Of a stretch of 15,244 nucleotides of DNA, positions 251-15,244 are shown piece after piece (the first letter of the stretch is position 1; every line of letters begins with the position of its first letter). Origin of the DNA: a virus. Its lineage: Duplodnaviria > Heunggongvirae > Uroviricota > Caudoviricetes. The translations under genes were made by a program, and so were the position numbers. The stretch lies in IMG/VR virus record IMGVR_UViG_2695420523_000022. The stretch is one strand, 5' to 3'. The notes beneath the pieces are model-generated. The model was not told the DNA's origin. It did no database searches and saw only the letters and a list, made by a program, of their open reading frames with translations.

Positions 251-280
251 AAACAACGTGGAACAAATAGACACAAGAAA
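251..280 (+). promoter_or_regulatory. Array of 10-bp-phased GAACAA-like pentamers (aAACAAcgtg gAACAAatag acACAAgaaa); candidate binding array
   Basis: The same 15-mer AACAACGTGGAACAA occurs at 7754-7768; unit and cgtg spacer also match the array at 13931-13980 on the other strand. Confidence 0.45.
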
Positions 281-609: not shown

Positions 610-901
610 CCCCATTAACCACAGGCGAATTTCCGCCTTCGGTCATTCCTTAATCATCTGCGTAATCATAATGATTATTCAGCAAGCGCAATTTTGCGCT
701 TTGCTTAAAGTTCAGCGAGTTACCGCGCCGACTTCCTCAAATTGAGGTTTCCGAAATATCAGCGGGTTAGCGATTAAGCTGTTCATTAATTAAACTGCGA
801 AAATTTCGTAGTTTGTGACTGTCTTTCAGGCAGCTTGTTAACAGTCCTCAGAAGCGAGGGATGTAGCCACCCATTTTTGGTCCGTCGGGAATATCAACCA
901 G

Positions 902-1183
902 TTACCGCCGCAACCGCTCCGGCTTCTTCCAGTGGTACGTTATTTTCTCCTTCTCCCGATACATCTCCACGCGGCGACGGTAGGCCAGCAACTCAAGAAC
1001 TCTGGTTCGTATGTTGCGCATATCCACGCCATTAAGTTCTATACCATCACGGCGCATCACCTCAGCAACAACACGCGCATAGTTTTCGGCTGTCACGCTG
1101 TCCGGCTGCGTGGCCTGTTCGTCAGCCTGCTGGCTGATTCCGGCAACGCGGCGGATTAATCCCGTTATTTCGGCTTCTGTCAT
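902..1183 (-). CDS. Hypothetical protein (93 aa) co-transcribed downstream of terL
   Basis: ATG at 1183 preceded by GAGGT with 7-nt spacing, 13 nt after the terL stop; charged, non-repetitive translation; no family recognised. Confidence 0.45.
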   Translation of the reverse strand: MTEAEITGLIRRVAGISQQADEQATQPDSVTAENYARVVAEVMRRDGIELNGVDMRNIRTRVLELLAYRRRVEMYREKEKITYHWKKPERLRR

Positions 1184-1196
1184 GCTGCTGACCTCA

Positions 1197-2858
1197 TTAC
1201 ACCCCGCTAAATTCTTCCAGTTTCTGGCGGTGGCTGTCGCTTATATCAAAAGCAAAATCCTCATGCTCTGCCTGGAATGTACCAAACGCCATCAGCGCCG
1301 CCACGCTCGGGTCTATCTTGTTCGGTGATTTTTTCTTGTTCGGCTTGATATTGGCGTTCGCGTCACTCTGCATCACGACGTTACTCATCGACCAGGACAA
1401 CACCGGATCGCCACGATGCACAATCACCCTGCGGTTAACAAAAACTTCGAACGATTTCGCCGCCGGACTGAATCTGAGGTAGGTTTGCGGGAACGGCTCC
1501 ACCTCAAAACCTGCCCCCTGTAATTGCGTTCTGAGATGCGTGGCGTTCCACGTATCAAAGCCCACCAGCCTGATATTAAATTTCTCCGCGTCCTGCATGA
1601 TGTCATCTCTGATCCGGTCGTAATCAATGCAGTCGCCAGGCGTTGTGCGTATCCAGCCTGCTTTAGCCCACTGACGATAGATGGCGCGGTTTTTATTGGC
1701 GGGGTTCTGTAGCTGGAACTCCGGCAGATAATGACGGGAAACCAGCATAATGGTTTTACCGACCGGAAAGGCATAGCACACGCTGGAAATATCGCTTGTG
1801 GATGATAAATCCAGCCCCGCGTAACACTCCTGGCCGTGTAAATCTTCCTCCGTGAACGTTCCGGCACACTCAGCCCATGCGCCGTTACCCATCCACGGGG
1901 TAGTCCCCTGACACCAGATATTAAATCGCTTTGTCATCATCTCCACCCACTGCGACGGAATACCCCGCGCTTTCTGGATGGTTGAGGCCAGTTTTTCACG
2001 ATCCACGGAAACATCAATATTAGGGTTCGCCTTTATCCACATCGCCGGATCATCAACCTCGTTTTCGTCGTCCAGTTCGTAAATCAGTACAAAAATTGAA
2101 TCGTTGACCTCTTCGCCGTCCAGGATCTGGCAGCAATAATCATAGTGCTGCTTACAGGCTGAAACGACGTTACTGCCTGATGTGGTAATAGCAAATAACA
2201 GCCCTTCGGGACGTGCGCCCATCCCCAGCTCAAGCGCGGAATAAACGCCGTTATCGGGGTGCAAGTGGTATTCGTCCACGATGGCAAGACTCGGGTTTGT
2301 ACCTTCAATGGTTGCCGCTTTTGCTGCCAGCGGCTTTAACAGGCTGTTGCTTTTCGGGTGTATCACCTTATGCGCCTGAATATTCACCCGCCTGCGTAAC
2401 GGTCGGGATAAAAGGCACATCTGACGCGCATCATCAAAGACGATCCGCGCCTGGTCACGGCTCACCGCTGCGGTGTAAATATCCTGCTGACCGTTCTCCA
2501 TAATCAGAAACCAGTCAGCCAGAATCGCGGCGGTCGTGGATTTCGCATTTTTGCGCGGCACTTCGATAAAGGCGCTCGTGTATTTGCGCCGTCCGGTGGC
2601 CTTAACCTTAAAGCCGAGGATGCACGCAAAGGCGAACTGCTGCCACGGCTCCAGCTCAATGGGTCTGCCACGCATCGGCCCTTTTACGTGCGGGCACACC
2701 CTTGAAAAGGCAATAAACCGCTCCACAACCTCACGATCGAACGTGTAAAGGGGGCTTTTAAGGTCCGAAAAGTACCGTTTAACAGCCTGTTTTAACCGTT
2801 TACAGGCCGGAATTTTGCCCGTTTTTACGTCTTCTGCGTACTTATTCCAGGCGGTCAA
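1197..2858 (-). CDS. terL: Terminase large subunit (553 aa)
   Basis: Size and translation typical of a phage terminase ATPase/nuclease large subunit; TTG start at 2858 with strong SD (AAGAGGA, 5-nt spacer) and no in-frame ATG nearby; overlaps terS by 17 nt. Confidence 0.85.
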   Translation of the reverse strand: MTAWNKYAEDVKTGKIPACKRLKQAVKRYFSDLKSPLYTFDREVVERFIAFSRVCPHVKGPMRGRPIELEPWQQFAFACILGFKVKATGRRKYTSAFIEVPRKNAKSTTAAILADWFLIMENGQQDIYTAAVSRDQARIVFDDARQMCLLSRPLRRRVNIQAHKVIHPKSNSLLKPLAAKAATIEGTNPSLAIVDEYHLHPDNGVYSALELGMGARPEGLLFAITTSGSNVVSACKQHYDYCCQILDGEEVNDSIFVLIYELDDENEVDDPAMWIKANPNIDVSVDREKLASTIQKARGIPSQWVEMMTKRFNIWCQGTTPWMGNGAWAECAGTFTEEDLHGQECYAGLDLSSTSDISSVCYAFPVGKTIMLVSRHYLPEFQLQNPANKNRAIYRQWAKAGWIRTTPGDCIDYDRIRDDIMQDAEKFNIRLVGFDTWNATHLRTQLQGAGFEVEPFPQTYLRFSPAAKSFEVFVNRRVIVHRGDPVLSWSMSNVVMQSDANANIKPNKKKSPNKIDPSVAALMAFGTFQAEHEDFAFDISDSHRQKLEEFSGV

Positions 2859-3198
2859 GCTCGTCCTCTTCTTCTGTTTCCGGTGGATTTTTACGGCGGC
2901 TTACCGGGTCAAAACCGAGCAAGGAGGCCATTTTTATCATCACTCTTTCAGCGTCGGATTTTGCGCTTAATGCGGGGTTTCTGCTCTCGCCGCCCTGACT
3001 GTTAACAATGCTGAACCCGCGTGCCGCAAGGTCTGCGACGGCTTTCCGGTATATCGAGTAATTGACGCAATACAGTTCCAGATTACTCCAGTCGGCGGGG
3101 GTAAGGTCTCCCCGTTCCGCAAGCTGCCGCGATTTTTCCCGCCACTGCTTCACGGCGATATCATCCAGGTAGGCGGGGGCTTTCGGTGGTCTTGCCAT
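2842..3198 (-). CDS. terS: Terminase small subunit, P27 family (118 aa)
   Basis: N-terminus MARPPKAPAYLDD and overall composition match the P27-family small terminase as I recall it; immediately upstream of terL. Confidence 0.75.
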   Translation of the reverse strand: MARPPKAPAYLDDIAVKQWREKSRQLAERGDLTPADWSNLELYCVNYSIYRKAVADLAARGFSIVNSQGGESRNPALSAKSDAERVMIKMASLLGFDPVSRRKNPPETEEEDELDRLE

Positions 3199-3321
3199 GC
3201 TTATTTTTTCGCCAGATTATTTTTCAAAAAATTCCCGTGCATAAAAATTTGAGGAGGCGTTCGGTGCCCGGCGGGGTCGGGTTTGTCCTGAAAACGCCCC
3301 CCACCCCGTCATACAGCCTCA

Positions 3322-3504
3322 TCAGCGATTGCGGAAACATTCCATAACCTCGCGGTCACGGTCGGTTAATCGCTTCGCTGTGATGCGTTCTGCGCGTCCT
3401 GACGCTTTATCTTTATGCCCTGTTTCCTGTGTCTTCCATGCGTCACGCTGCCTTATAAGTCCACGGATAAGGCGTTTTTGTTCCCGCTCATTCATCAGCG
3501 TCAT
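3322..3504 (-). CDS. Possible small basic protein (60 aa) between HNH and terS; uncertain
   Basis: ATG at 3504 gives MTLMNEREQKRLIRGLIRQRDAWK, overlapping the HNH stop by 17 nt; weak SD; could be a spurious frame. Confidence 0.25.
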   Translation of the reverse strand: MTLMNEREQKRLIRGLIRQRDAWKTQETGHKDKASGRAERITAKRLTDRDREVMECFRNR

Positions 3505-3928
3505 ACATCCAGTTATTGCGGTTAGCGGCCCGTTCTTCCTCTTCACGAAATCCACCTGCGGCACGCTTGCTTTTTGTTGCTGGATCAAGCCACTTCGTTT
3601 TCTGGTTATGACACGCCTGGCACAATGGCTGATGGTTCCATTCGGGCCAGAAGAGAACATCATCACCGCCATTAATCGGGATAATGTGATCCACCACCAC
3701 GGCGGGCGTATATATCCCCTTCTCAAGGCATCGCACGCATAACGGGTTTTTACTCAGATACATGGCGCGGTATTTTTCCCACTGTCTGGAGTACCCACGC
3801 GCGCGGCGGTGTCCTCGTCTGGCATCCTCTGCACGCCATGCCGCCCGCCTGTGCTCCTCACACTTGCCGGACTTAACGCGCCTGTTACAGCCTGGTTCTG
3901 TACATCGTCTTAATGGTTGCCACGGCAT
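3488..3928 (-). CDS. HNH endonuclease (146 aa), packaging-associated
   Basis: Cys pairs (CTEPGC, CEEH, CVRC, CQACH) plus DHIIP and NHQPLC motifs typical of HNH; placed directly before terS/terL as in HK97-like phages; ATG overlaps the connector stop. Confidence 0.8.
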   Translation of the reverse strand: MPWQPLRRCTEPGCNRRVKSGKCEEHRRAAWRAEDARRGHRRARGYSRQWEKYRAMYLSKNPLCVRCLEKGIYTPAVVVDHIIPINGGDDVLFWPEWNHQPLCQACHNQKTKWLDPATKSKRAAGGFREEEERAANRNNWMYDADE

Positions 3929-4224
3929 CAGTACACCCCCACATCACGGTAAGCCGTCCAGAGCGCGCCAATCGTCATGGGTACGCGCGTTTTTGCGTTA
4001 TCCGCTACCAGCTGGCGATTCTCGTACAGGTGAGCGATAAACATCATGCAGCCAATCTTTATGGCTGGCGTGAACTCCAGCCCGTCATCAAAGCGCCTGC
4101 CTATATGTATCTGGCACGCCTCAAGCGATGCGGCAATGTATCCGCTGATTAACTGGTCTTCCTCGTCGCCATCGATGCGGCAATGGAGTTTCACTTCTTC
4201 CAGGGTGATAAGTTCTTCTGTCAT
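3928..4224 (-). CDS. Head-tail connector protein, gp6-like (98 aa)
   Basis: MTEELITLEEVKLHCRIDGDEEDQLISGYIAAS matches the gp6-like connector N-terminal pattern; position between head closure and HNH. Confidence 0.65.
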   Translation of the reverse strand: MTEELITLEEVKLHCRIDGDEEDQLISGYIAASLEACQIHIGRRFDDGLEFTPAIKIGCMMFIAHLYENRQLVADNAKTRVPMTIGALWTAYRDVGVY

Positions 4225-4559
4225 TTTTCCGCGCCCTCACGACAAAGAATTTCAAGGCGTGTCCTGGCGGCATCCGGCAGCGGTTGCCCGATGATATTCA
4301 GTACACGCCCCGCCAGCGGCCCCGTATTGACCTTTATCCGGCTGGTGGCGTTGATGTCCTTCCGGTACCGTATCCAGATCCTTACGGTACCAATCGCCAG
4401 CTCTGCACCCGATGAAATGGCCTCCTTGCTGCTGATCATGTTCACGCTTGCCCAGAGTGTGTGACCGTCCTCCCACGTTTCGAGTATTTCGCCGGTTATA
4501 TCCCTGGTCTGTTTCAGGGTCTGAATCGTTACCCTGTCACGCAGTCGCCCTATGTTCAT
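4221..4559 (-). CDS. Head closure / head-tail adaptor protein (112 aa from ATG at 4559)
   Basis: RDRVTIQ...WASV...IRYRKDI...RI pattern typical of the head-tail joining family; ATG at 4559 overlaps the portal stop; the track ORF extends to 4601 but has no better start. Confidence 0.65.
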   Translation of the reverse strand: MNIGRLRDRVTIQTLKQTRDITGEILETWEDGHTLWASVNMISSKEAISSGAELAIGTVRIWIRYRKDINATSRIKVNTGPLAGRVLNIIGQPLPDAARTRLEILCREGAEK

Positions 4560-5767
4560 TCCGGTTTTTCTCCCTCGCTGATTTTTACTTCCTGTTTCCA
4601 TGCCTGGCTGAACTCATCACCACCATCACGCGGGGACAGCCCTTCACGTTCGCGGGCTTCGTTCGGGCACATAACGCCGGATTTGATGCCGCGTTCATAG
4701 GTGGCAAAGCGTTCGCCAGGTGTGGCCCGTAACAGGTCCGCGCTGTCAAACTCCACCTGATACCGGATACCAGGTACAGGCGAGGCCACCAGCAGGGCGT
4801 TTTTTATCTGCTGCTCAAAGTTCGCCAGCCACGGGCGCATTGTCATGGTGAGAAATGCGCGGCTTGCCTCGCTGAAATTGCTGTAGGTGCTGTTGCTGTA
4901 TTCCTGCAGAAAAATCGGCGAGACGTTGAACATTCGGGCGATGTCTTCAATGGTGAAGCGACGGGAGGCCAGCCATTCAGCATCCTGATTACTCATGCCC
5001 AGCTGCTGATAGCTCATACCCCCTTCAAGAATGGGCGTTTTTCCGGCGTTTCTGGCTCCTTTGTAGCGTTCCAGTGCGGCTAATGCCTGTTTGCCCTTCA
5101 CGCCGTCCAGCCATTCGCCTGACGTGATAACCCCTGCCGCCATCATGCCATCACGCATCACGCTCGCGCCGTGGCGTTGTTGGGCCAGCCCAAGCCCCAG
5201 CGATTCGCGGCAGATGGTTACAGGTGAGCGCCCCATAAAACCGTCATCCGTGGAGTAACGAAGGTGGAGAACCTCCCACGGTAAATAGTTGCGGGTGTTT
5301 CCGGTGTAGGCGTCAGTGATGCAGTAGCGCCAGTTATGCTCACCTGTCTGCTCAACGTTCACCGACTGCGGCGGGTAAGGATGTAAAGCCACCGGAAAAC
5401 CATCACGCCCCCACTGAATCACCGCATAAGCATTACCGTTTAACAGGCAGTGGCGGATCATCATTCGCTTAAACTGGTAGGGAGTCTGCCACGCGTTCGG
5501 GCGCTCGTTGAGGATGTGATCGACCGGATGAGAATCAAGCCACTCGCGGGCCTCCTTCCCCTTCTCATTGCGTACCAGGTACAGGTAACACGGCATGGTA
5601 GCCACCGCCTCAGAGATGACCGTCACGGCGTTCATGACGGCGGGCAGTGATTCCGCTGTCCCCGATGATACGTACTCACCCGCCCCCGTGTTCGATGTGC
5701 CAGCCAGCGCCATAAATTCATCAAGCGTCATGCTGCGCTGCTCTTTTTTTCTTCTGAAAAGCCACAT
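4556..5767 (-). CDS. Portal protein, HK97 family (403 aa)
   Basis: Size, composition and position between prohead protease and head closure; ATG at 5767 is 1 nt after the protease stop. Confidence 0.8.
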   Translation of the reverse strand: MWLFRRKKEQRSMTLDEFMALAGTSNTGAGEYVSSGTAESLPAVMNAVTVISEAVATMPCYLYLVRNEKGKEAREWLDSHPVDHILNERPNAWQTPYQFKRMMIRHCLLNGNAYAVIQWGRDGFPVALHPYPPQSVNVEQTGEHNWRYCITDAYTGNTRNYLPWEVLHLRYSTDDGFMGRSPVTICRESLGLGLAQQRHGASVMRDGMMAAGVITSGEWLDGVKGKQALAALERYKGARNAGKTPILEGGMSYQQLGMSNQDAEWLASRRFTIEDIARMFNVSPIFLQEYSNSTYSNFSEASRAFLTMTMRPWLANFEQQIKNALLVASPVPGIRYQVEFDSADLLRATPGERFATYERGIKSGVMCPNEAREREGLSPRDGGDEFSQAWKQEVKISEGEKPE

Positions 5768-5768
5768 A

Positions 5769-6341
5769 TCACACCCCCGCTAAATCCACCCACCAGCGGC
5801 GATTATCCGCACGCGGCATTTTTTCTGGGTGCTGCTCATACAGGGAACGGCGGGCCAGCTCCACGCCGGAATCGGGGTAAGCCGGTACCGATGTAACGGT
5901 AATTTCGTACAGTTCCGCCACCAGCACGGTGCGCACGCATGGATCTGTTGTGGTATCCCATACATCCTTACGGGAGCGAAAGCCAAAGCTCATCCCCGAG
6001 ATGTCCCCACGCTTAACCAGTTCGATAACGTCGCGCCCTGTACTGGTATCCGGTGGGGTCAGTTCAAAGCGTAACCCTGTTTCGTCCTCTTCCAGTTTCA
6101 GCGTGCCGGAACGGGTACGCCCCAGCAACATGCTGTGGTCATGCTCATACAGGCCGCGAACGTCATTACCCACCGCAAGCCATTCAGTAAACGCTCCCCG
6201 CTGGAATTTTTCGTAAAACTCCCCCCATAGCAGCTCTGAAAGCTTATCCCAGCGAACAACGTAGCCTGTAAGCGTGTTGCTGGCGCTGGTGGTGATTTCC
6301 GATGACCGGATTTCCATACTCTTCATAATTTTTTCACCCAT
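5769..6341 (-). CDS. Prohead maturation protease, HK97 family (about 185-190 aa)
   Basis: Translation typical of the HK97 prohead protease; lies between capsid and portal; start ambiguous among ATGs at 6341, 6326 and 6317. Confidence 0.75.
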   Translation of the reverse strand: MGEKIMKSMEIRSSEITTSASNTLTGYVVRWDKLSELLWGEFYEKFQRGAFTEWLAVGNDVRGLYEHDHSMLLGRTRSGTLKLEEDETGLRFELTPPDTSTGRDVIELVKRGDISGMSFGFRSRKDVWDTTTDPCVRTVLVAELYEITVTSVPAYPDSGVELARRSLYEQHPEKMPRADNRRWWVDLAGV

Positions 6342-6370
6342 AAAACACTAAAGGGGCTTTTAAGCCCCTT
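6342..6370 (-). terminator. GC-rich hairpin plus U-rich tract between the capsid and protease genes; probable partial terminator or attenuator
   Basis: Minus strand reads AAGGGGCTT-AA-AAGCCCCTT followed by TAGTGTTTTATG, 10 nt after the capsid stop. Confidence 0.5.
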
Positions 6371-6380
6371 CTGTATGCTG

Positions 6381-7538
6381 TTAATCGTCGTCCTGTGGCA
6401 GTTCCAGAATCTTGATCGCGTTCGAATCCACCACGCCACCGCCTAAATATTTCTGCGTGAAAATTTTGATGAAGCCCGGCTCTGTGAGGTTGTCCGGTCT
6501 GGTGCGAACACCTGTTTCGTGATCAACAATGTAGTAACCGCGTTTGAAGTCACCCAGGGCAATAACGTTATCAGGCATAAACTCCAGATATTCGACCGGA
6601 AGGCCCAGCAACGTATCAGGATCACCCGCCTGTAAACGGTCGCGCCAGATGTAATCACCGTTCGCGTTCTTCACCTTCTGAAGTTTTGCCGCCGTCGTGG
6701 AGTTAACCACCCAGACCGCGTTTTTGCGGTATTTTTTACGTAATGCAAATTTCAGGTCGATCAGCGGGTCAGCAGATGTCCACGCCAGAGATTCGGAAGG
6801 TTTAATTACCTGTAACGTACCAAAATCACGCTCTTTGTCGTTCTTCTCTGCACGGGGTACGGATAAAAAGCCTTTTGCTTTTTTGTCACCGTCGCCCACA
6901 ACCAGATCGCTTTCTTCGGTTTCCGTGAAGGTGTCGCCAATCTCACCCGTCAGCCATGAAAGGATGTCCACATCGGAAAAATCCACGATTTCCTGTGTGG
7001 TGCGCGGGTACGCATAGACCGGATACAGCTTAATGCTCACCTCGTTAATCTGCGGGGTGCTGGTCTGTTCGCGTGTCTTACCCTCTTCACCGTGGTTAAC
7101 GGTCGCACCGCCAGCGGAAACAAGCTGCTTAAACTCGTTGCTGCTGATTTTCTTCACGGTACAGATGCGGCGCATGGTGGATTCATCCGTCAGCATTCGC
7201 ATGATTTCGGTGTTCAGTTCGGGGATAACGGTATAACCACCATCAGCGGGAACGCCTGTACTTAATGCGCGGGTTTCACCTGTCAGGATGTAGTTGCGGA
7301 GTTCTGCCGGGTCAGTGGTCTGGCTGCTTTTACCTGGCTTGCTGCGCTCTTCGTCTGCAATGGCTTCAAGGCGGGAAATGTCTTTATCGAGGGATTCAGC
7401 TTTAGCGCGTAATTCGTCAAATTTTGCGCCCTCAGCATCGTTAAGACTGCGGTTTTCTTTTTCCGCGTTCTCCAGCATGTCGCGCATCTGATTTTTAATG
7501 GCGGTTTTCTGCTGGCGTAATTCGATTATTCTCGGCAT
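6381..7538 (-). CDS. Major capsid protein, HK97 fold (385 aa) with N-terminal coiled-coil delta/scaffold domain
   Basis: N-terminal 100 aa are charged and helical (ELRQQKTAIKNQMRDMLENAEKENR...), as in HK97-type capsid delta domains; C-terminal part resembles HK97-family capsids; followed by protease and portal. Confidence 0.85.
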   Translation of the reverse strand: MPRIIELRQQKTAIKNQMRDMLENAEKENRSLNDAEGAKFDELRAKAESLDKDISRLEAIADEERSKPGKSSQTTDPAELRNYILTGETRALSTGVPADGGYTVIPELNTEIMRMLTDESTMRRICTVKKISSNEFKQLVSAGGATVNHGEEGKTREQTSTPQINEVSIKLYPVYAYPRTTQEIVDFSDVDILSWLTGEIGDTFTETEESDLVVGDGDKKAKGFLSVPRAEKNDKERDFGTLQVIKPSESLAWTSADPLIDLKFALRKKYRKNAVWVVNSTTAAKLQKVKNANGDYIWRDRLQAGDPDTLLGLPVEYLEFMPDNVIALGDFKRGYYIVDHETGVRTRPDNLTEPGFIKIFTQKYLGGGVVDSNAIKILELPQDDD

Positions 7539-7575
7539 AAAAAAAGTCCTGGGGTTAAGTAAGGAACTCCAGGAC
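7539..7575 (-). promoter_or_regulatory. Terminator-like hairpin with U7 tract directly abutting the capsid ATG; stem contains the only SD-like AGGA
   Basis: Minus strand: GTCCTGGAGTT-CCTTACTT-AACCCCAGGAC-TTTTTTT-ATG (stem 7 bp + mismatch + 3 bp). Confidence 0.5.
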
Positions 7576-7752
7576 GCGGCAAAAACTCAACCGTTTTTCA
7601 TAAGGAAATCAGCAATCGCACCGATCGTTTTCCCGCCTGGTAATGAATATTGGCGAGAACATTAACAGGCGGAAAAGTGGCCCCAGCGTCCTGGCACCAC
7701 GGGCGAGAATAATCATGATTCAGTTCGGGTAAAATATGCCGATCCTGTCAGT

Positions 7753-7782
7753 GAACAACGTGGAACAACCACGAACAAATAA
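7753..7782 (+). promoter_or_regulatory. Three GAACAA pentamers at exact 10-bp phasing (gAACAAcgtg gAACAAccac gAACAAataa), about 215 bp upstream of the capsid start
   Basis: Direct reading; shares the 15-mer AACAACGTGGAACAA with 252-266 and the unit with 13931-13980. Confidence 0.5.
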
Positions 7783-7790
7783 TTTACAAA

Positions 7791-7819
7791 AAATGACAAA
7801 AAGCCGGATTGCTCCGGCT
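7791..7819 (-). terminator. Rho-independent terminator after the 74-aa ORF
   Basis: Minus strand: GCCGGAGCAATCCGGC followed by TTTTTGTCATTTTTT, 11 nt after the stop at 7830. Confidence 0.75.
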
Positions 7820-7829
7820 GTATGCGTGC

Positions 7830-8054
7830 TCAGTCCCTGATCCCTTTCAGAAATTCTATCAATGCATCTATCTGTTCAGGATTTACCGCCAGCATTTCAC
7901 CGGACAGAGCACATCTCACAAAACCATGCTGATCCTTTTCAATCAGTGCGCCCGTCTCCAGGAATGCGCGGTAATCATTGATGCTCATCGTCTCCATGTT
8001 GTCAGCATGGTATTTATCACGCTGTTTTAATATCTCATCAAATTTCATCGGCAT
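7830..8054 (-). CDS. Hypothetical protein (74 aa), moron-like with its own terminator
   Basis: ATG at 8054 (MPMKFDEILKQRDKYHADN...) with SD AGAGGA at 7-nt spacing; flanked by terminators on both sides. Confidence 0.5.
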   Translation of the reverse strand: MPMKFDEILKQRDKYHADNMETMSINDYRAFLETGALIEKDQHGFVRCALSGEMLAVNPEQIDALIEFLKGIRD

Positions 8055-8149
8055 TGTTTTTTCCTCTGTTGTGTCTGTTTGTTTCAGATAGTAACTATGC
8101 CTGACCGTGACGAAAACCCGGTAATGCGCCATACCGTTTCAACTGGTGC

Positions 8150-8173
8150 AAAAAAAGCCGGATTTCTCCGGCT
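8150..8173 (-). terminator. Rho-independent terminator after the PerC-like gene
   Basis: Minus strand: AGCCGGAGAAATCCGGCT followed by TTTTTTT, 5 nt after the stop at 8179; near-identical to the 7791-7819 terminator. Confidence 0.8.
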
Positions 8174-8178
8174 GTTGA

Positions 8179-8451
8179 TTAGCTGTCTGGGTAATTACGC
8201 CATATTTCATCGCTTACACCATCTATACCCATTTCAGCATAAGTGCGATCTACTGCCTTTCTCAGGTCTCCGAAGTTATCCGGCGGCTCCGGTGGCTTCT
8301 GTGCCTTCCTGGAACATTCCAGCCGTCGCATCGTAACCTGATGCCGTTCCTTGTCTGTCTCCACCAGCAGCATGACTTCACCCCATCGCGCCGCCGCCCT
8401 CCGGTAAAAGCCTTTCGCCTCGAGTTCTTCCGCTATGCGGTCATGTACCAT
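8179..8451 (-). CDS. PerC-family-like small transcriptional regulator (90 aa); family assignment tentative
   Basis: ATG at 8451 with SD GAGGGGG at 5-nt spacing; motif AEELEAKGFYRRAAARWGEVM resembles the PerC/Pch motif as I recall it; the track ORF from 8571 lacks a credible start. Confidence 0.45.
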   Translation of the reverse strand: MVHDRIAEELEAKGFYRRAAARWGEVMLLVETDKERHQVTMRRLECSRKAQKPPEPPDNFGDLRKAVDRTYAEMGIDGVSDEIWRNYPDS

Positions 8452-8461
8452 CGCCACCCCC

Positions 8462-8872
8462 TCAGAACGGAATACCGTCACCGTAAGGGTCATCGCCTCC
8501 CGCTGGTGGCTGATTACCCTGTGTGCCTGTGGTTTTGCGTCTGTTCCCGCCAGGACGTGCCGCACGGACACTGATTACGCTGTCTGCAATAACCTGATAA
8601 CCCTGCCGCGTTTCCCCGTTCTGTCCGGTCCACTGGCTGACCTGCATCGTGCCGGATACGCTGGCAACGTCGCCTTTTTGATGTTTAGCCAGGAAGTCGG
8701 CCTGCTTACCAAATGCGATGACCGATAGCCATAACGTCGCCTGCCCATCCTGCGCCTGACTACATGGCAACGATACCGCCATACGCGCCAGCGTCATCGG
8801 TGTGCCCTTACTGGTCTGTTTTACCTGCGGGTCGTCCACCAGCCGCCCGTAAGCCGCTATCTGTGCTGTCAT
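8462..8872 (-). CDS. ssb: Single-stranded DNA-binding protein (136 aa)
   Basis: OB-fold-like N-terminus, Gly/Gln-rich linker and acidic C-terminal tail ending DDPYGDGIPF, the canonical SSB tail type; ATG overlaps the upstream stop. Confidence 0.75.
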   Translation of the reverse strand: MTAQIAAYGRLVDDPQVKQTSKGTPMTLARMAVSLPCSQAQDGQATLWLSVIAFGKQADFLAKHQKGDVASVSGTMQVSQWTGQNGETRQGYQVIADSVISVRAARPGGNRRKTTGTQGNQPPAGGDDPYGDGIPF

Positions 8873-9120
8873 GATTCCACCTCTCCGGTTTTAACGTTGA
8901 TGGTTGTTACCTGTTCTGCTTCTGCGATCTCCCGTTCTGTCAGCGTGGCAAAGTTTGCCGCTGCTGTGGTCATGAATGCGCTTATCAGGTCGGGATGTTC
9001 CTTCGCGTATCCTTCCCGCGTGTGGCGGTCTATCGTTCTGATTGCCACCTTTAAGGTGTGCTCAGTCATGTCTAACGCTTTATATTTTGGCTCTGTTCTG
9101 TCTCTGCGTTTTTGGGTCAT
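8869..9120 (-). CDS. Hypothetical protein (83 aa) between the origin and ssb
   Basis: ATG at 9120 (MTQKRRDRTEPKYK...); stop overlaps the ssb ATG; no family recognised. Confidence 0.4.
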   Translation of the reverse strand: MTQKRRDRTEPKYKALDMTEHTLKVAIRTIDRHTREGYAKEHPDLISAFMTTAAANFATLTEREIAEAEQVTTINVKTGEVES

Positions 9121-9131
9121 TTCTCGCAACC

Positions 9132-9323
9132 TCTCACTTTTTCGCCTCACTTTTTCAAGCGTCTCACTTCGTCGCAGTTGGGATTTTCGGTTTTTCTATG
9201 TGTGTGTTTCATAAGTATTTTTTTACCCCTCACTTTTGAGGATGTATACAGGTCGAAAAGTGAGGGAGAGCGGGCTAATTTTGGCCCTCTTTCTATCCCC
9301 CTCGCTTTTGCTCCTCACTTTTA
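9132..9323. repeat. Iteron-type replication origin: at least 5 direct copies and 1 inverted copy of CCTCACTTTT around an AT-rich tract
   Basis: CTCACTT at 9133, 9146, 9163, 9229, 9314; inverted copy AAAAGTGAGG at 9257-9266; degenerate CTCGCTT at 9301; AT-rich 9181-9228; lies directly 3' of the replication gene. Confidence 0.65.
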
Positions 9324-10721
9324 TAGCGGCGCTACATCATCCCCATCGATACGAATAACCCCATCTTTTTCCAGCTTGTACAGCCAGCGCCGGAAGTTTT
9401 TCATTTCATACCCCAGCTTTTTCATGTCATCACGTAACAGCGGGATCGTGCACTTGTCGCCGTTCTGTGTGCGTGAACGGATGCACCCCCATAGCGCGGT
9501 ATGGTTTTCCGTCTTGTTCCCTGCCTCCTCGATGCGCTCCAGTTCAACAGGAGGGCGCGGATCATCCACCACCACCAGCGACGTGATTAATTCACCGTCA
9601 GCGTCGGTAAAAAGCTCCACCACGCGTAAGTCATATGCGGCTTCTTTGAGTTCCTCCGCGTCCTTCATTTTGGTGCATGAGATAACCAGCGCTTCGCTTC
9701 CTGCGTCCTCCCTGCGTATCCGGTATTCAGCATCCAGCGAAGCACGAAATGCACTGGAACCGCGCGCGCCTTTCGTCTCATCCTTGCCGGAATGGTGAAC
9801 CACCAGCACCGTGGCCCCTGTGCGTCGTTTCAGTTCGTCACAACCACGGATAAACGCCCCCATATCACGGGAATCATTTTCATCATTCCCACCAAAGCAA
9901 CGCGCCAGCGTATCCAGAATAATCATGCGTACAGGTTTACCCGTTTCCCGCTCCACCTGACGGGCAGCGATAACCATTTCATCAACATCAAGCGGGGCAG
10001 CCGGAAAGATGGGGCGGTTTACCAGATACAGATTTTTCACCTGCTCATCGTGCACAACCTCCCAGGCTTTTACACGACGCGGAACACCTATACCGCCTTC
10101 ACCAACCACATAGAGAACCGCACCATGTGCAACCCTGCGGCCTCCCCACTGGCGACCAGTGGCAACATGGCACGCCCACGATCCGGCAAGGAATGATTTA
10201 TAGGACCCGCTAGCCCCGTATATGCTGCATAGCGATACCGCCGGAATAATCCCCTTAACCACGTAATCCAGTTGCGTGTCGTATCCGGTAGATCCAACGC
10301 TCATCGGTAGCGTGGTTTTTCGCTGGTGGTTTTTTTCTTCCACCGGCTCTTTCCCGCGCACCCGTTCCAGGTATTCGCGCCAGTTCTCCCGCATATGGCT
10401 GTGCATCCCTTCGGGGTAATAATTCGCATCAGTTACACCCGCCGCCGCCAGCTTGTGCGCAATGGCATTAATATTTGATGGCCTGATGTGGCCTGCCTTG
10501 TACAGCCGGACACAATAGCGCCCCTCGTCGATGATTCTCAGGTCTGCCAGTTCATCCAGTTGATCATCAGCCAGCACAACGGGAGGCACATTATCGCCAG
10601 CCAGTCGCCCGTCCTGTTCCTGCCACTGTTTCGCATGTGCCCACGCATCACTACCCGCAAAAATGATGACTTCGGTCATCTTGTCGTAAGGCTGTTTTTT
10701 TAAGTTCGGTGCGCTTTTCAT
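9321..10721 (-). CDS. Replication initiator / RepA-like RecA-fold ATPase, the satellite pri-rep equivalent (466 aa)
   Basis: Walker A-like GASGSYKS, downstream hydrophobic strand then D (MIILDTLARCFGG) and VLVVHHSGKD, typical of RepA/AAA_25-type replicative ATPases; iterons immediately downstream. Confidence 0.7.
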   Translation of the reverse strand: MKSAPNLKKQPYDKMTEVIIFAGSDAWAHAKQWQEQDGRLAGDNVPPVVLADDQLDELADLRIIDEGRYCVRLYKAGHIRPSNINAIAHKLAAAGVTDANYYPEGMHSHMRENWREYLERVRGKEPVEEKNHQRKTTLPMSVGSTGYDTQLDYVVKGIIPAVSLCSIYGASGSYKSFLAGSWACHVATGRQWGGRRVAHGAVLYVVGEGGIGVPRRVKAWEVVHDEQVKNLYLVNRPIFPAAPLDVDEMVIAARQVERETGKPVRMIILDTLARCFGGNDENDSRDMGAFIRGCDELKRRTGATVLVVHHSGKDETKGARGSSAFRASLDAEYRIRREDAGSEALVISCTKMKDAEELKEAAYDLRVVELFTDADGELITSLVVVDDPRPPVELERIEEAGNKTENHTALWGCIRSRTQNGDKCTIPLLRDDMKKLGYEMKNFRRWLYKLEKDGVIRIDGDDVAPL

Positions 10722-11017
10722 TTCTTGCCCCTGAATACGTTAAGCATCTTTTTTATTTCCTGAATATTGGCGCGTGCTTTCTCCCTGCTGGTTGGTTTAC
10801 TGCGGGGCGCTGCCTGTACCAGAGAAAAATCACGCCGGAACTGATAAACAGGCATCACGCAGTCATATTCGTAGCCTTCACGGCGGTAGGTAATGCGTCG
10901 CTCTTCTACACCTTTAATCGTTACGGTGCCGCCGTACTGGTCGCGGTAAATATCGCCGCGCGTAAATTTAGGGTGAGTGTTGCCACTGGCAGTTAAGCCA
11001 GAATATTTAAGTTTCAT
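10718..11017 (-). CDS. Hypothetical protein (99 aa), translationally coupled to the replication gene
   Basis: ATG at 11017 with SD GGAGAA; stop overlaps the downstream ATG (ATGA). Confidence 0.5.
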   Translation of the reverse strand: MKLKYSGLTASGNTHPKFTRGDIYRDQYGGTVTIKGVEERRITYRREGYEYDCVMPVYQFRRDFSLVQAAPRSKPTSREKARANIQEIKKMLNVFRGKK

Positions 11018-12053: not shown

Positions 12054-12273
12054 GTACCCCTCCGCATTTTTTTTCGTTAGAAATAAGCGTTCTTCTTTCC
12101 TGTTCATCGCTCAGGAATACGCAGACCTCACCGCTAAGGCGTTTAAGTAAGCCGATGATTGCCCCTGATTCGCTGTCGGTCATCATGCCAGGGTAATCCT
12201 CTGCCAGTGCGCAAATAACTTCGATTTGGTGGGCGCGTTCTGCTGCCTGTTGTAGTGTGATTTCCTGGCTCAT
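12043..12273 (-). CDS. Hypothetical protein (76 aa)
   Basis: ATG at 12273 overlapping the upstream stop (ATGA); SD AGGGGG 8 nt upstream. Confidence 0.45.
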   Translation of the reverse strand: MSQEITLQQAAERAHQIEVICALAEDYPGMMTDSESGAIIGLLKRLSGEVCVFLSDEQERRTLISNEKKCGGVHVQ

Positions 12274-12470
12274 AAGCCTACCCCCTGACGAATACGGGCA
12301 GCAAATACCATCACGCAGCCAGCCGGAGATTGCTGGCGTGCTTCCTGTTCGCTGGTGGCCTCAATGGTAATCACGCGCGGTTGTGCCGTGCTCAGGGCGA
12401 TAAAACGCCAGATGTATTTATTCAGGTTGTGCGAGTCCCGCCCTTGCGGGTGTATGGTATAATTTCTCAT
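12270..12470 (-). CDS. Small protein (66 aa), first gene of the leftward operon; possibly Icd-like (P4-type host cell division inhibitor family), tentative
   Basis: ATG at 12470 with SD GAGG at 5-nt spacing; MRNYTIHPQGRD...IWRFIALSTAQPRVITIEATSEQEARQQSPAGCVMVFAARIRQG resembles Icd-like satellite proteins as I recall them. Confidence 0.4.
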   Translation of the reverse strand: MRNYTIHPQGRDSHNLNKYIWRFIALSTAQPRVITIEATSEQEARQQSPAGCVMVFAARIRQGVGL

Positions 12471-12567
12471 AGCTGCCTCGATACTGTTGCTATCGTTGGT
12501 GGTTAGACGCCCTGCATGTGTTGCGAGCACTGCGGGGCGTTGCTTAATTTGAGTAACAAAACTCAAA

Positions 12568-12648
12568 CTGTGCGCACAGATTAAAATCATGTGTGCGCAC
12601 ATGTCAATACTTAACATCTCATTTTTTTTACTGTATTGTGTGCGCCCA
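12568..12648. promoter_or_regulatory. Divergent promoter region with three TGTGCGCACA-type operators (12569-12578, 12592-12601, imperfect 12639-12648)
   Basis: Leftward promoter: -35 TTGACA (revcomp of 12602-12607), 16-nt spacer, -10 TTTAAT (revcomp of 12580-12585); one operator fills the spacer, one sits at the predicted start site. Rightward promoter: -35 TTAACA 12611-12616, -10 TATTGT 12634-12639, overlapped by the third operator. Confidence 0.6.
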
Positions 12649-12675
12649 TAAAGTCCATTTAAGTGAGGTGCATCA

Positions 12676-12873
12676 ATGTCTAGCGGTAACAAAAACAACA
12701 AATCAGCAAAGAAAAATATTCGATTCCCACATGAGCTTATAGATGGGATTGATGCCAGCGTTGAACAAGAAAAATTAACTAATCCTAGTGCTAATTTTTC
12801 CGCATGGGTCTTAGATGCCTGTGGACGCAAATTAAAATATGAACAGCGCCGGAAGGCCAAAGAATCAGAATAA
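12676..12873 (+). CDS. YlcI/YnfO-family (DUF3950) small protein, likely ribbon-helix-helix DNA binder (65 aa); candidate island repressor
   Basis: NIRFPHELIDGIDASV...NFSAWVLDACGRKL matches the YlcI pattern (NIRFP...NFSAWVIEACRRRL) as I recall it; SD GTGAGGTG 6 nt upstream; divergent from the operator-bearing promoter. Confidence 0.65.
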   Translation: MSSGNKNNKSAKKNIRFPHELIDGIDASVEQEKLTNPSANFSAWVLDACGRKLKYEQRRKAKESE

Positions 12874-12930
12874 TCACTATCAGCGCCGTGGTGTGAGGAA
12901 CTACGGCGCATTTCTTTACAGGAGTAGACA

Positions 12931-13116
12931 ATGAACAACGAAGAATTACGGGAAATCGCATTATCCATACTTGAAAGACAGGTAGAAAAAAAATTAAGAG
13001 AAATGGATGAAATGCCTGACCATGAACAGGAAGCAAGGCCAAAAAGATTTGCCCTTGAGGATTTTCTTAAAAATTGCCCAAGAAAGATGAGATCGTGGCG
13101 TTGTTGTCCGCCCTGA
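12931..13116 (+). CDS. Hypothetical protein (61 aa) downstream of the ylcI-like gene
   Basis: ATG at 12931 with strong SD AGGAG at 6-nt spacing; MNNEELREIALSILERQVEKKLREMDE... Confidence 0.5.
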   Translation: MNNEELREIALSILERQVEKKLREMDEMPDHEQEARPKRFALEDFLKNCPRKMRSWRCCPP

Positions 13117-13288
13117 TGACAGATTTGCCAACCAGCCAAAAATGTGGCATCGTTGTCGATGCATAGTGTAATCAACATGTATATCATATTTTTGCCTGTA
13201 ATCCGGCAATTGTGGCGCTTCTTCACACAGTTGATATAATTCCAATGCTCATATTTATTTTTTGTGCAGCAGGTTAATCGTTCACAAA

Positions 13289-13318
13289 GGCGCTCAGGTA
13301 ACTGGGCGCTTTTTGTTA
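13289..13318 (+). terminator. Rho-independent terminator between the convergent alpA and ylcI-like transcripts (probably bidirectional)
   Basis: GGCGCTCAG-GTAA-CTGGGCGCT (9-bp stem with two G-U pairs) followed by TTTTTGTT; CCTTTGTG on the other strand. Confidence 0.6.
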
Positions 13319-13463
13319 TGCCTGAAAAACCCCAATTTTGTTGTTTTTCAGTTTCACCAGGGCGAACGAATCCCCGCCCACGTTCTGGCGTATATTCAAT
13401 CTTCATGGTTATAGCTCTGTGTTCAGATGATTGATGTGTGGCGGCTGCGTGCCGCCAGCGTGA

Positions 13464-13652
13464 TTAATGAACTGCCTTGCAGCTATCCTTCCAGGCCAGA
13501 ACCTCGGATAAAGACCAGCCAACGGAACGACCGCCAAGTTTACGACGTGATGGGAATTGTCCGGCCTTTTCCAGGCGGTAGCGGCATGAGCGGCTAAGGC
13601 CTGTTAGCTTTTCGCATTCTTTTTCACGTATAAACCGATCAGTGCTTAACAC
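13464..13652 (-). CDS. alpA: AlpA-family phage regulatory protein / excisionase-like wHTH (62 aa)
   Basis: LTGLSRSCRYRLEKAGQFPSRRKLGGRSVGWSLSEVLAW is the AlpA signature; GTG start at 13652 with SD AAGGGGG at 5-nt spacing. Confidence 0.8.
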   Translation of the reverse strand: MLSTDRFIREKECEKLTGLSRSCRYRLEKAGQFPSRRKLGGRSVGWSLSEVLAWKDSCKAVH

Positions 13653-13930: not shown

Positions 13931-13980
13931 CCTCTTGTTCGTAGTTGTTCCGCATTGTTGCTCATTGTTGCACGTTGTAT
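13931..13980 (-). promoter_or_regulatory. Five tandem 10-bp units each containing TTGTT (GAACAA on the minus strand) between int and alpA
   Basis: cctcTTGTTC gtagTTGTTC cgcaTTGTTG ctcaTTGTTG cacgTTGTAT; same unit and cgtg spacer as the arrays at 251-280 and 7753-7782. Confidence 0.55.
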
Positions 13981-14026: not shown

Positions 14027-15244
14027 TTATTTTCTTCTGGCTACTGGTAGCGTGGTTACGTTTTCATGTGTTCCCGCCAGTATCCCTAACCGCTCCATCC
14101 ACATATCCAGCACATTGCGTTTAGCATCCAGATAACGGGAATGATTATAAACTCGCTGCATTCCTGGCATCTGGTGGCCTGTAAGCTGCTCCACGACATG
14201 CGGATCAACGCCTAAATCGTTCAGCATGGTTGTAAAGGTGCGCCGGATGTCATGCAGTGACCAGTGAGGATGATTAAGCCTCCTGTGCGCTAATCTTCCA
14301 TACTGCGATACGCTGGCCTCCTGTTTCACTTCCCCCAGCAATAAGCCCGTGTGCCTGTTCTGCTCCACCAGCTGCGTGACGAACGGCAGGATCGCTTCCG
14401 GTATGGGCCGGAATATTGCGACCTTCGTTTTGCTGTGCTCCTTCGGAACGGTCCATAGCATTTCCGTAAAATCCCACTCCCCGATCTCCGATAGCCTCAG
14501 TTCTACCGTCCTGGCTCCGAAGACAATCAGGAGGCGGATTAACGCGACGTAGTAAGGGGAAAATATTTTTTTGTCCAGTGCCTGCAATAATTCGCCAAGT
14601 TCTTTGTTACTTAAGACACGTTCGCTTATATCCGGTTTTTTCCCAACGTCCGCCACGTTCAGATCGTCCAGAACGTTGCTGATTGCATAGCGCCGCCTAC
14701 GGCAGAACTTAAGCGCCTGTTTGCACGCCTGTAGCACGAATCCGGCAGTAACAGGCGTTCGCTTTGCCACCAGGTCAAAACAGGCCAGCCAGTGCCGTAG
14801 CTCGCATTTATCCAGCGGCATAGCACCAATCTGCTGTATTACGTGATTATTAAGTCGCCTTTTCAGGGCGATATAATCCACGCGGTTTTCCTTTACGTAA
14901 TACTCAAGCCAATAGGTGAGCGCATCGCCAACCGTTACGGGCTTTAACGCTTCCTGTACGGTGTAATTCATCTCATGACGTGGATTTTTCCCCTCAGCCA
15001 GCCATGTGCGACACTGTGCGGCTTTTTCCCTGGCTGCTTTCAGGCTCAGATCAGGATAACTTCCCAGCTTAATGCGTTCGGGTCGTGTCTCCCTTCCCGT
15101 TCCGGCCCTGTATGTGAAATACCAGGTCAATTTCCCTGATGTTAAATATTTCACGCTCAGGTTTCCGCCATCACTATAAAACGTGTTTTTCTCCGCTGGC
15201 TTACCATGAAGTTTCCTTAGCAAGGTATCGCTCAGTTTGTTCAT
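14027..15244 (-). CDS. int: Tyrosine integrase, P4-type with N-terminal arm-binding domain (405 aa)
   Basis: N-terminus ...FYSDGGNLSVKYLTSGKLTWYFTYR...IKLGSYPDLSLKAAREKA matches the P4-like integrase N-domain; C-terminal HDIRRT...H..Y catalytic region; ATG sits exactly at the window edge, so the true start and promoter are unseen. Confidence 0.85.
   Translation of the reverse strand: MNKLSDTLLRKLHGKPAEKNTFYSDGGNLSVKYLTSGKLTWYFTYRAGTGRETRPERIKLGSYPDLSLKAAREKAAQCRTWLAEGKNPRHEMNYTVQEALKPVTVGDALTYWLEYYVKENRVDYIALKRRLNNHVIQQIGAMPLDKCELRHWLACFDLVAKRTPVTAGFVLQACKQALKFCRRRRYAISNVLDDLNVADVGKKPDISERVLSNKELGELLQALDKKIFSPYYVALIRLLIVFGARTVELRLSEIGEWDFTEMLWTVPKEHSKTKVAIFRPIPEAILPFVTQLVEQNRHTGLLLGEVKQEASVSQYGRLAHRRLNHPHWSLHDIRRTFTTMLNDLGVDPHVVEQLTGHQMPGMQRVYNHSRYLDAKRNVLDMWMERLGILAGTHENVTTLPVARRK

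Follow-up and report, generated by a model that had tools for sequence, protein, structure and literature searches.

A probable pchE operon, a 74-residue gene product and twin hairpins at the early/capsid junction of an EcCIEDL933-type satellite

Two small genes, each followed by a nearly identical hairpin, occupy positions 7791–8451 of a 15,244-nt viral sequence (IMG/VR record IMGVR_UViG_2695420523_000022; hereafter, the window) and raise the question of whether they are independent cargo or parts of the operons that surround them. An earlier note, made from the letters alone, described a PerC-like regulator and a 74-aa protein, each with its own terminator, as moron-like insertions between the replication and head modules, and its description of the genes and terminators was accurate (ORFs 8451..8179 and 8054..7830; a 24-nt pattern with one difference). 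A moron, as the term is used by Hendrix and Juhala, is an additional gene that comes with a promoter and a terminator of its own and lies between genes that are adjacent in relatives.

Identity of the element

All genes in the window are on the minus strand. Scans against Pfam, NCBIfam and PHROG identified the gene set of a capsid-forming phage-inducible chromosomal island (cf-PICI), comprising an integrase (15244..14027), AlpA (13652..13464; PF05930), a DUF4222 protein (11017..10718), a 378-aa regulator with an Icd-like C-terminus encoded between AlpA and the DUF4222 gene, a RepA-type helicase (10721..9321), orf93 (8869..9150; phrog_1231), the true start of which is probably near 9120, and an SSB gene (8462..8872; PF00436). 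Downstream of the two small genes, an HK97-type major capsid gene (6381..7538; PF05065, E = 2e-61) opens the packaging operon, which continues with a prohead protease, portal, head closure protein, connector, HNH protein, P27-type TerS and TerL. The same scans of the whole window found no tail or lysis genes, and tRNA and Rfam scans of the window gave no matches. We took a cf-PICI to be an island of ~15 kb with int, alpA, replication genes and a complete HK97-type capsid/packaging operon and with no tail or lysis genes, and this is what the window contains.

By blastn, window positions 890–9122 were 97.7% identical to the phoQ–roxA island of E. coli O157:H7, and the DNA of 7540–8460 was 99.6% identical. 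The homology stops at 9122, and the promoter/ori region of the window (9123–9320) is unlike that of the O157 island. The latter is known as OI-51, CP-933C or Sp7 (PMC3378721) and carries int, xis, a P4 alpha-like gene, AlpA, a ssDNA-binding protein, PchE and structural genes (Flockhart et al., PMC3378721); it is also EcCIEDL933, the experimentally characterised cf-PICI prototype (bioRxiv 10.1101/2022.09.08.507074). EcCIEDL933/OI-51 and the window have the same genes around pchE, with SSB upstream and the 74-aa gene and HK97 capsid gene downstream, but differ in the replication/regulation module, which has a DUF927 primase in O157 and the RepA helicase plus the 378-aa regulator in the window. 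The window is an EcCIEDL933/OI-51/Sp7-type cf-PICI, and 7791–8451 is where its early (replication) genes meet the capsid operon, a position that the earlier note had given correctly. Transfer of EcCIEDL933 is reportedly lowered by mutation of 'hypothetical gene 1792'.

We consider it probable that this junction is built from a pchE operon closed by one hairpin (T2) and an orf74 unit that ends in the other (T1), with the hairpin serving both as terminator and as joint.

The PerC-family gene and its transcription

The gene at 8179..8451 (minus strand) encodes a 90-aa protein that matched PF06069 over residues 1–89 with 152.8 bits, against a cutoff of 22.6 (E = 3e-45), and also matched phrog_994 (E = 3e-46). 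Its ATG is preceded by GAGGGGG and lies 10 nt past the SSB stop codon. The protein was 39% identical over its full length to the canonical PerC of EPEC E2348/69 (plasmid pMAR2), which bears out the PerC assignment, and showed 100% amino acid identity to a protein of the O157:H7 H2495 island, the gene for which lies between phoQ and roxA (ycfD). PchE has been placed on OI-51/Sp7 (PMC3378721), and five pch genes, in three groups, are found in EHEC. By sequence identity and by synteny with the OI-51/Sp7 gene, the perC-family gene of the window is pchE (ECs1588 in O157:H7), a group 3 pch gene. No relative of the protein was found among solved structures, and PADLOC models matched neither this protein nor orf74 nor four other proteins of the island. 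A weak N-terminal resemblance to the ANR family (NF033650, residues 7–51, E = 0.002), a link that the EcCIMP1 authors also raised, scored 17.9 bits, below the 32-bit NCBIfam cutoff, and on this score the protein is not counted as a member.

The PF06069 family is common to the window protein, EPEC PerC (BfpW, on the EAF plasmid pMAR2) and PchA/B/C of O157 lambdoid prophages, although the carrier differs, being a satellite for pchE and a plasmid or prophage for the others. EPEC PerC and PchA/B/C activate LEE1/ler, whereas PchE and the EcCIEDL933 PerC-like protein are reported, as cited in PMC6265319 and PMC11773190, not to do so. As cited there, Iyoda 2004 and Porter 2005 found that PchE did not activate LEE1, and PMC11773190 (citing Porter 2005) states that LEE1-lacZ was unaffected by the PerC-like proteins of EcCIEDL933 and EcCICFT073. 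Thus, the ler or LEE reporter experiment that had been proposed as a check of action on LEE is already in the literature, with a negative outcome for LEE1 as far as these accounts go. The more general suggestion that the satellite may alter host gene expression was right and had been published for PchE (PMC6265319, PMC7369912): over-expression of pchE repressed csgD/curli and biofilm formation, increased motility and altered the expression of eae, lpfA1, ler, stpA and flhDC, these phenotypes coming mostly from plasmid over-expression, with a slight deletion phenotype. PchE thus appears to be an accessory, host-directed small regulator that, when over-expressed, represses csgD/curli and raises flagellar expression.

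PerC alleles on PICIs of Gram-negative bacteria were noted in 2018 (PMC6092414), and a LEE1-silencing PICI PerC-like protein was described in 2025 (PMC11773190). EcCIMP1_025 resembles PchE in being a PerC-family protein borne by an E. coli PICI and treated as accessory (~40% identity to the EcCIEDL933 protein, according to its authors) but silences LEE1-lux in Citrobacter rodentium, an effect not reported for PchE (PMC11773190), and EcCIMP1, unlike the window, has no capsid module. The main point, PchE as a regulator of the host, is already published and the finding is mostly known biology; for virulence biology there is little new in a regulator that is PchE, on a carrier of the prototype cf-PICI lineage, for which the LEE test was already negative.

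The transcription of pchE bears directly on the moron question. In O157 strain PA20, RNA-seq and 5'RACE placed the transcription start site of pchE 675–700 nt upstream of the gene, 10 nt before ECs1586, in a region of the O157 island that corresponds to the dissimilar 9123–9320 of the window, and a polycistronic RNA covers ECs1586, ECs1587 and pchE (PMC7369912, section 4.4 for the start site), which are the homologues of orf93, SSB and the PerC gene in the window. The 10-nt gap between SSB and pchE contains no terminator, and the GC content of pchE (54%) is similar to that of its neighbours. The upstream start site in O157 together with this terminator-free gap indicates that pchE is the last of three genes in an operon closed by T2, rather than an autonomous cassette. 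In the window, the orf93-ssb-pchE transcript would accordingly be expected to end at T2, with a 354-bp unit of spacer, orf74 and second hairpin (T1) following it.

The contrary reading is that both genes are classic morons, i.e. autonomous promoter-gene-terminator cassettes expressed from a quiescent island for lysogenic conversion. Each gene does have a terminator of its own, both are missing from some relatives in which the neighbours adjoin, the orf74 unit stands apart in composition (44% GC, compared to 51–58%), and pchE expression in uninduced O157 is low and steady (PMC6265319). The absences are clear-cut: one relative (L002) lacks exactly 7825–8151, including orf74, and architectures without PerC exist in which SSB or orf93 directly precedes the hairpin, so that the proposed comparison of related islands did reveal presence and absence of both genes. 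We nevertheless regard the moron reading as unlikely, because pchE is transcribed together with two upstream genes from no promoter of its own (PMC7369912), which contradicts the idea of an autonomous PerC moron, no promoter-like site is evident in the 97-bp spacer before orf74, and the orf74 family keeps its position next to capsid genes across genera, which would not be expected of random cargo.

The hairpin as boundary and joint

The pattern AAAAAGCCGGATTKCTCCGGCTGT is present in the window in exactly two copies, at 7798–7821 and 8152–8175, which differ from each other at one base, and was found in 0 of 200 dinucleotide-preserving shuffles of the window. A terminator scan called both hairpins on the minus strand, each with a 7-bp stem that includes five G-C pairs, a 4-nt loop and a T-run. 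T1 (7798..7821; hairpin 7819..7802) has a GCAA loop and a U-run and closes the 74-aa gene, and T2 (8152..8175; hairpin 8173..8156) has a GAAA loop and U7 and closes orf93-ssb-perC. The RNA reads AGCCGGA-[GCAA or GAAA]-UCCGGCU followed by U5–U7, such that the single base difference preserves a GNRA tetraloop. Folding energies over 41-nt segments were -14.4 and -13.2 kcal/mol (z = -4.0 and -3.7), and the distance from stop codon to hairpin was 10 nt for orf74/T1 and 5 nt for perC/T2. No T-run follows either hairpin on the plus strand; thus, T1 and T2 are predicted to terminate minus-strand transcripts only.

Homology between islands breaks at these hairpins. L002, which is otherwise collinear, aligned by blastn to window positions 890–7824 and 8152–9122, with 27 bp of L002 covered by both alignments. 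This island therefore keeps a single hairpin; what is missing is a 354-bp unit made up of the spacer, orf74 and one copy of the hairpin, and the gap between the two aligned parts of the window is exactly 7825–8151. Homology of L003, which carries a lambda-like packaging module, begins exactly at 7798 of the window, and L004, which has a different attachment site and a ClpP-capsid fusion, has only 8151–8455 in common with it (both by blastn), so that the breakpoint at 8151/8152 is seen relative to both L002 and L004. We also sampled 60 evenly spaced matches among 1,358 E. coli genomes that matched 6381–8900, a collection of complete genomes in which O157 is over-represented; 10 had the full arrangement, 6 lacked just the 354-bp unit (~14% of the query) and 14 started exactly at 7798.

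Scanning IMG/VR for the 21-nt hairpin core gave 120 contigs with 158 copies, a sample that is ascertained through the hairpin itself. The gene just upstream of the hairpin encoded PerC in 35 of the 158 copies, SSB in 31, orf74 in 14 and orf93 in 9, and 41 were preceded by a 137-aa gene of the lambda-like packaging module. The architectures observed, with T denoting the hairpin, were orf93>T, orf93>SSB>T, SSB>PerC>T, orf93>PerC>T, SSB>ProQ>PerC>T and PerC>T>orf74>T, each of which precedes one or more of the HK97, lambda-like and ClpP-MCP packaging modules. The hairpin therefore ends the early operon after four different last genes (orf93, SSB, PerC and orf74) and before three unrelated packaging modules. 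It is very improbable that the two hairpins resemble each other by chance, or that they represent some generic repeat (REP-like, MITE or attC-like) and not terminators. The sequence is not confined to PICIs, as ~21 of the 120 contigs with the 21-nt pattern show no PICI genes, but its absence from the shuffles and the placement of the copies 5–10 nt past a stop codon, in the transcribed orientation and with a U-run behind them, argue for terminators. Moreover, the unit spans just 24–27 bp, and there is no recombinase of the integron type. A cassette system like that of integrons was also rejected.

We infer that the hairpin is the end-of-early-operon terminator of this family and, at the same time, a short conserved joint for the exchange of modules. 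With a conserved joint at the end of the operon, every gene that is added appears to come with a hairpin of its own, and where two copies are present the intervening gene can be lost by recombination; recombination between T1 and T2 would remove orf74 and give rise to islands such as L002. The order of events may have been insertion of orf74 with its hairpin, or insertion of PerC with its hairpin followed by deletions. On this evidence, the hairpin would mark the boundary between early and late genes in three or more PICI lineages as a joint at which accessory genes and whole packaging modules are swapped, and it offers a simple way to define the limits of the accessory slot in E. coli satellites. 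This architecture and the synteny of orf74 are small additions beyond known biology.

The distribution of the two genes relative to the packaging modules indicates how far each is accessory. Among the IMG/VR contigs, all found through the hairpin, the HK97 module was accompanied by both PerC and orf74 in 8 cases, by PerC only in 7 and by neither in 1 (L132); the corresponding numbers were 7, 16 and 18 for the lambda-like module and 0, 2 and 22 for the ClpP-MCP fusion module. PerC was thus present in 15 of 16 such contigs with the HK97 module, and all 16 of the complete E. coli genomes sampled with this HK97 capsid gene had both SSB and PerC. A capsid-protein search of genome contigs gave 12 loci, 5 of which were close enough for use. 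The earlier note had named universal conservation in the satellite family as evidence against a cargo role for PerC, and such conservation was not seen: PerC was absent from 4 of 4 cf-PICIs from outside Escherichia/Shigella (Rosenbergiella, Citrobacter amalonaticus, Erwinia psidii and Gilliamella; L006–L009), as well as from L017, L132 and L140–L148. In E. coli, the cf-PICIs of a second lineage, which occupies the allC site, carry a ProQ/FinO-family gene in place of PerC, and in one phoQ–roxA island the packaging module directly follows SSB. orf74 was absent from L002, L008, L132 and 6 of the 16 sampled E. coli genomes with this capsid. Neither gene is therefore present in all members of the cf-PICIs. 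PerC is accessory for PICIs in general and tightly linked to this HK97 capsid block in E. coli; this linkage (16/16 and 15/16) could reflect a function in the satellite rather than linkage within a young block.

orf74 and control of the capsid operon

orf74 (7830..8054, minus strand) encodes a small acidic protein of 74 aa that belongs to phrog_1957, a family of unknown function. Its ATG is preceded by a GAGGAA ribosome-binding site, and the 100-aa reading of some annotations was rejected because the distant homologues all begin at MP(I/M). The 97-bp spacer between T2 and orf74 (8055..8151) is part of the 354-bp unit missing from L002. No sigma-70-like promoter was called in this spacer at the scan threshold, and the best candidate found by eye agreed with the consensus at 7 of 12 positions; orf74 expression would have to rely on a weak promoter or on transcripts that run through T2.

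No family in Pfam, NCBIfam or PADLOC matched orf74, and a word-indexed homologue search returned only near-identical E. coli proteins. The family proved small: exhaustive searching of 1.8 billion representatives gave 21 clusters (50% identity), and one of these, a 1383-aa repeat protein (P0019), was regarded as a compositional artefact; a search with P0029 as query gave no matches. AF2 models were poor from the single sequence (pLDDT 57) and good from an alignment (91.6), and the predicted fold had no match among solved structures. A profile match to residues 83–121 of N.BspD6I (E = 0.002; E = 0.39 for the single stretch) was too weak for use.

Homologues of orf74 with 31–42% identity lie immediately upstream of the HK97-type capsid gene in 3 of 4 cf-PICIs of other genera (L006, L007 and L009, from Rosenbergiella, Citrobacter and Gilliamella), where there is no PerC. 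Closer to the window, a Shigella island (L005) has a copy that is 95% identical, and in the allC-site lineage of E. coli a 40% identical homologue directly follows ProQ, with a different terminator, and in L017 it lies next to the capsid gene on the upstream side, again with no PerC. In nine further IMG/VR contigs (L140–L148), a homologue follows the replication gene and lies upstream of the capsid gene, with no PerC. Among the E. coli architectures collected through the hairpin, orf74 always occurs as PerC>T>orf74>T, with HK97 or lambda-like modules. Since homologues keep their place beside the capsid module in different genera, orf74 is not random cargo. The proposal of modular cargo thus survives in part, in that the hairpins are exact homology breakpoints and orf74 with its hairpin is a unit of presence and absence, and fails in so far as it implied a random insertion. 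orf74 is a genuine gene and looks to be a lineage-typical, dispensable companion of cf-PICI capsid operons; with it, a small family with no known fold relatives regularly accompanies HK97-type satellite capsid operons. With low confidence, we suggest that it is most likely a small, acidic modulator that binds protein and acts in the satellite cycle.

In at least five of the nine contigs (L140–L144, L146), a 1.5-kb insert separates the orf74 homologue from the capsid gene; the inserts of L140 and L143, the two examined, each contain two reverse-strand genes. Such cargo is what would be anticipated if the slot held anti-phage immunity genes, as is expected of the variable regions on either side of the packaging operon in PICIs. 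For the two window genes we consider this improbable, as neither PerC nor orf74 matches a PADLOC model, PerC belongs to a regulator family and orf74 is a single 74-aa protein without an enzymatic motif.

Just downstream of T1, at 7754..7778 on the minus strand, three TTGTTC repeats with 10-bp phasing (TTTGTTC-GTG-GTTGTTC-CAC-GTTGTTC) open the 259-bp stretch before the capsid gene. Approximately 40 bp with these repeats are kept in the diverged allC-site island L017, where another terminator precedes them and the sequence on either side is no longer similar. Similar phased TTGTT clusters are found at 13935–13979, between int and alpA and in the opposite orientation, and at 252–276, towards the other end of the island, and complete islands have them immediately outside int as well. 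Arm sites for Int were rejected as the sole explanation of the repeats, as two of the clusters are far from the att ends. A distribution over att-proximal arms and two internal control regions would fit a Cox/Xis-like binder of dual function such as AlpA, which suggests that the capsid operon would have its own activator-dependent start after T1. In our preferred arrangement, T1 would insulate the capsid operon, and the TTGTTC repeats would lie within its activator-dependent control region.

The same repeats are relevant to the possibility that PerC and/or orf74 serve the satellite itself, in control of the capsid operon or in dialogue with the helper, with the hairpins acting as gates that, when AlpA is induced, are read through or are bypassed from a separate activated promoter. 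Both genes always occupy the early/late junction, almost every E. coli island that has this capsid module also has PerC, members of the orf74 family are retained ahead of the capsid gene in several genera, and the TTGTTC repeats stand directly after T1 as well as between int and alpA. A Pseudomonas protein likewise named AlpA is a processive antiterminator (PMC7969949, PMC9371919), which makes read-through of T2 and T1 on induction possible. However, antitermination by a PICI AlpA is putative, the same packaging modules are found without PerC (L132, L017 and L018; 18 of 41 lambda-like and 22 of 24 ClpP-MCP loci), orf74 is missing beside the same HK97 module in 6 of the 16 genomes sampled and in L008, and the stretch before the packaging operon in cf-PICIs has been described as a variable region (bioRxiv 10.1101/2025.02.11.637232). 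We therefore hold this reading to be doubtful, and the pchE operon closed by T2 and followed by the orf74 unit remains our preferred account. A more specific form, in which the orf74 family is a conserved satellite-cycle factor and the hairpin and TTGTTC repeats together make up an AlpA-gated early/late switch, through antitermination or through activation of the capsid operon, is likewise considered unlikely; if it held, the 'own terminators' of the two genes would be regulatory gates rather than the ends of morons.

Repeat clusters and a recurrent terminator hairpin

Clusters of TTGTT(C) repeats with 10-bp phasing were seen in the window at the island end (252-276, reverse strand), in the interval between terminator hairpin T1 and the capsid gene (7754-7778, reverse strand) and in the int-alpA interval (13935-13979, forward strand). 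They were also found 5' of int and past TerL in four compared islands (L001, L002, L005 and L017), and their placement overall covers both island ends, the int-alpA gap and the T1-capsid gap. We consider these clusters putative sites bound by a single protein, for which an AlpA/Xis-like protein or the Int arm domain are candidates. If this were true, a shared TTGTT(C)-binding protein would couple control of the capsid operon to excision.

A hairpin like T1 and T2, the near-identical terminators behind orf74 and pchE, with 3 mismatches in the 24-nt pattern, followed a 137-aa gene within the lambda-like packaging module, immediately 5' of terS (L003, 6728-6751; L018, 5702-5725; and 41 IMG/VR copies), and the hairpin is therefore reused at another module boundary. 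In the relatives L001 (9556-9671) and L003 (9308-9436), the PGAP/RefSeq annotation covers the T2 region, comprising the terminator and the pchE-orf74 spacer, with a pseudogene called 'frameshifted trigger factor' or with a hypothetical protein of 42 aa; these look like annotation artefacts.

Helicase-orf93 region and neighbouring genes

At least five copies of AAAGTGAGG, in both orientations, are present in the intergenic stretch that separates the helicase gene from orf93 (9132-9321), and this repeat region is probably the replication origin of the island. Homology to the O157 island (the phoQ-roxA island of E. coli O157:H7) stops at 9122, by this region, whose counterpart in O157 contains the promoter for the orf93-ssb-pchE transcript.

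The window's DUF4222 protein (99 aa; 10718-11017, reverse strand) shared 91% identity with the protein that occupies the position of ECs1581 (RgdR) in the O157 island; RgdR, encoded by OI-51, is an activator of type III secretion (PMC3378721). A 378-aa ORF (12270-13406, reverse strand) carries a C-terminal Icd-like cell-division-inhibitor domain (NF033153, residues 331-374). Since separate genes encode the counterpart of its N-terminal part in related islands, this ORF may represent a gene fusion or an incorrectly joined reading frame.

Positions 33-71 of the orf74 family profile gave a weak match (E=0.002) to N.BspD6I, a nicking endonuclease, at its residues 83-121, with the motif G-F-x-x-x-D-x-x-G-[FY]-L-R in common; this match was too weak for a fold assignment.

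Contents of the accessory slot in other islands

In the E. coli cf-PICI L017, which sits at allC, a ProQ/FinO-family RNA-chaperone-like gene (8319-8861; PF04352, E=8.5e-24) takes the slot held by PerC in the window; the order ProQ then PerC was also seen in L073, L114 and L125. In two IMG/VR contigs, an insert of two reverse-strand genes of ~170 and ~255 aa separates the capsid gene from the orf74 homologue (L140, 5917-7247; L143, 3819-5134). This pair, which had no match in Pfam or PADLOC, is candidate cargo, possibly defence genes. PICI PerC genes occupy a second location, 3' rather than 5' of a ClpP-capsid fusion gene, as observed in L041, L042 and L070.
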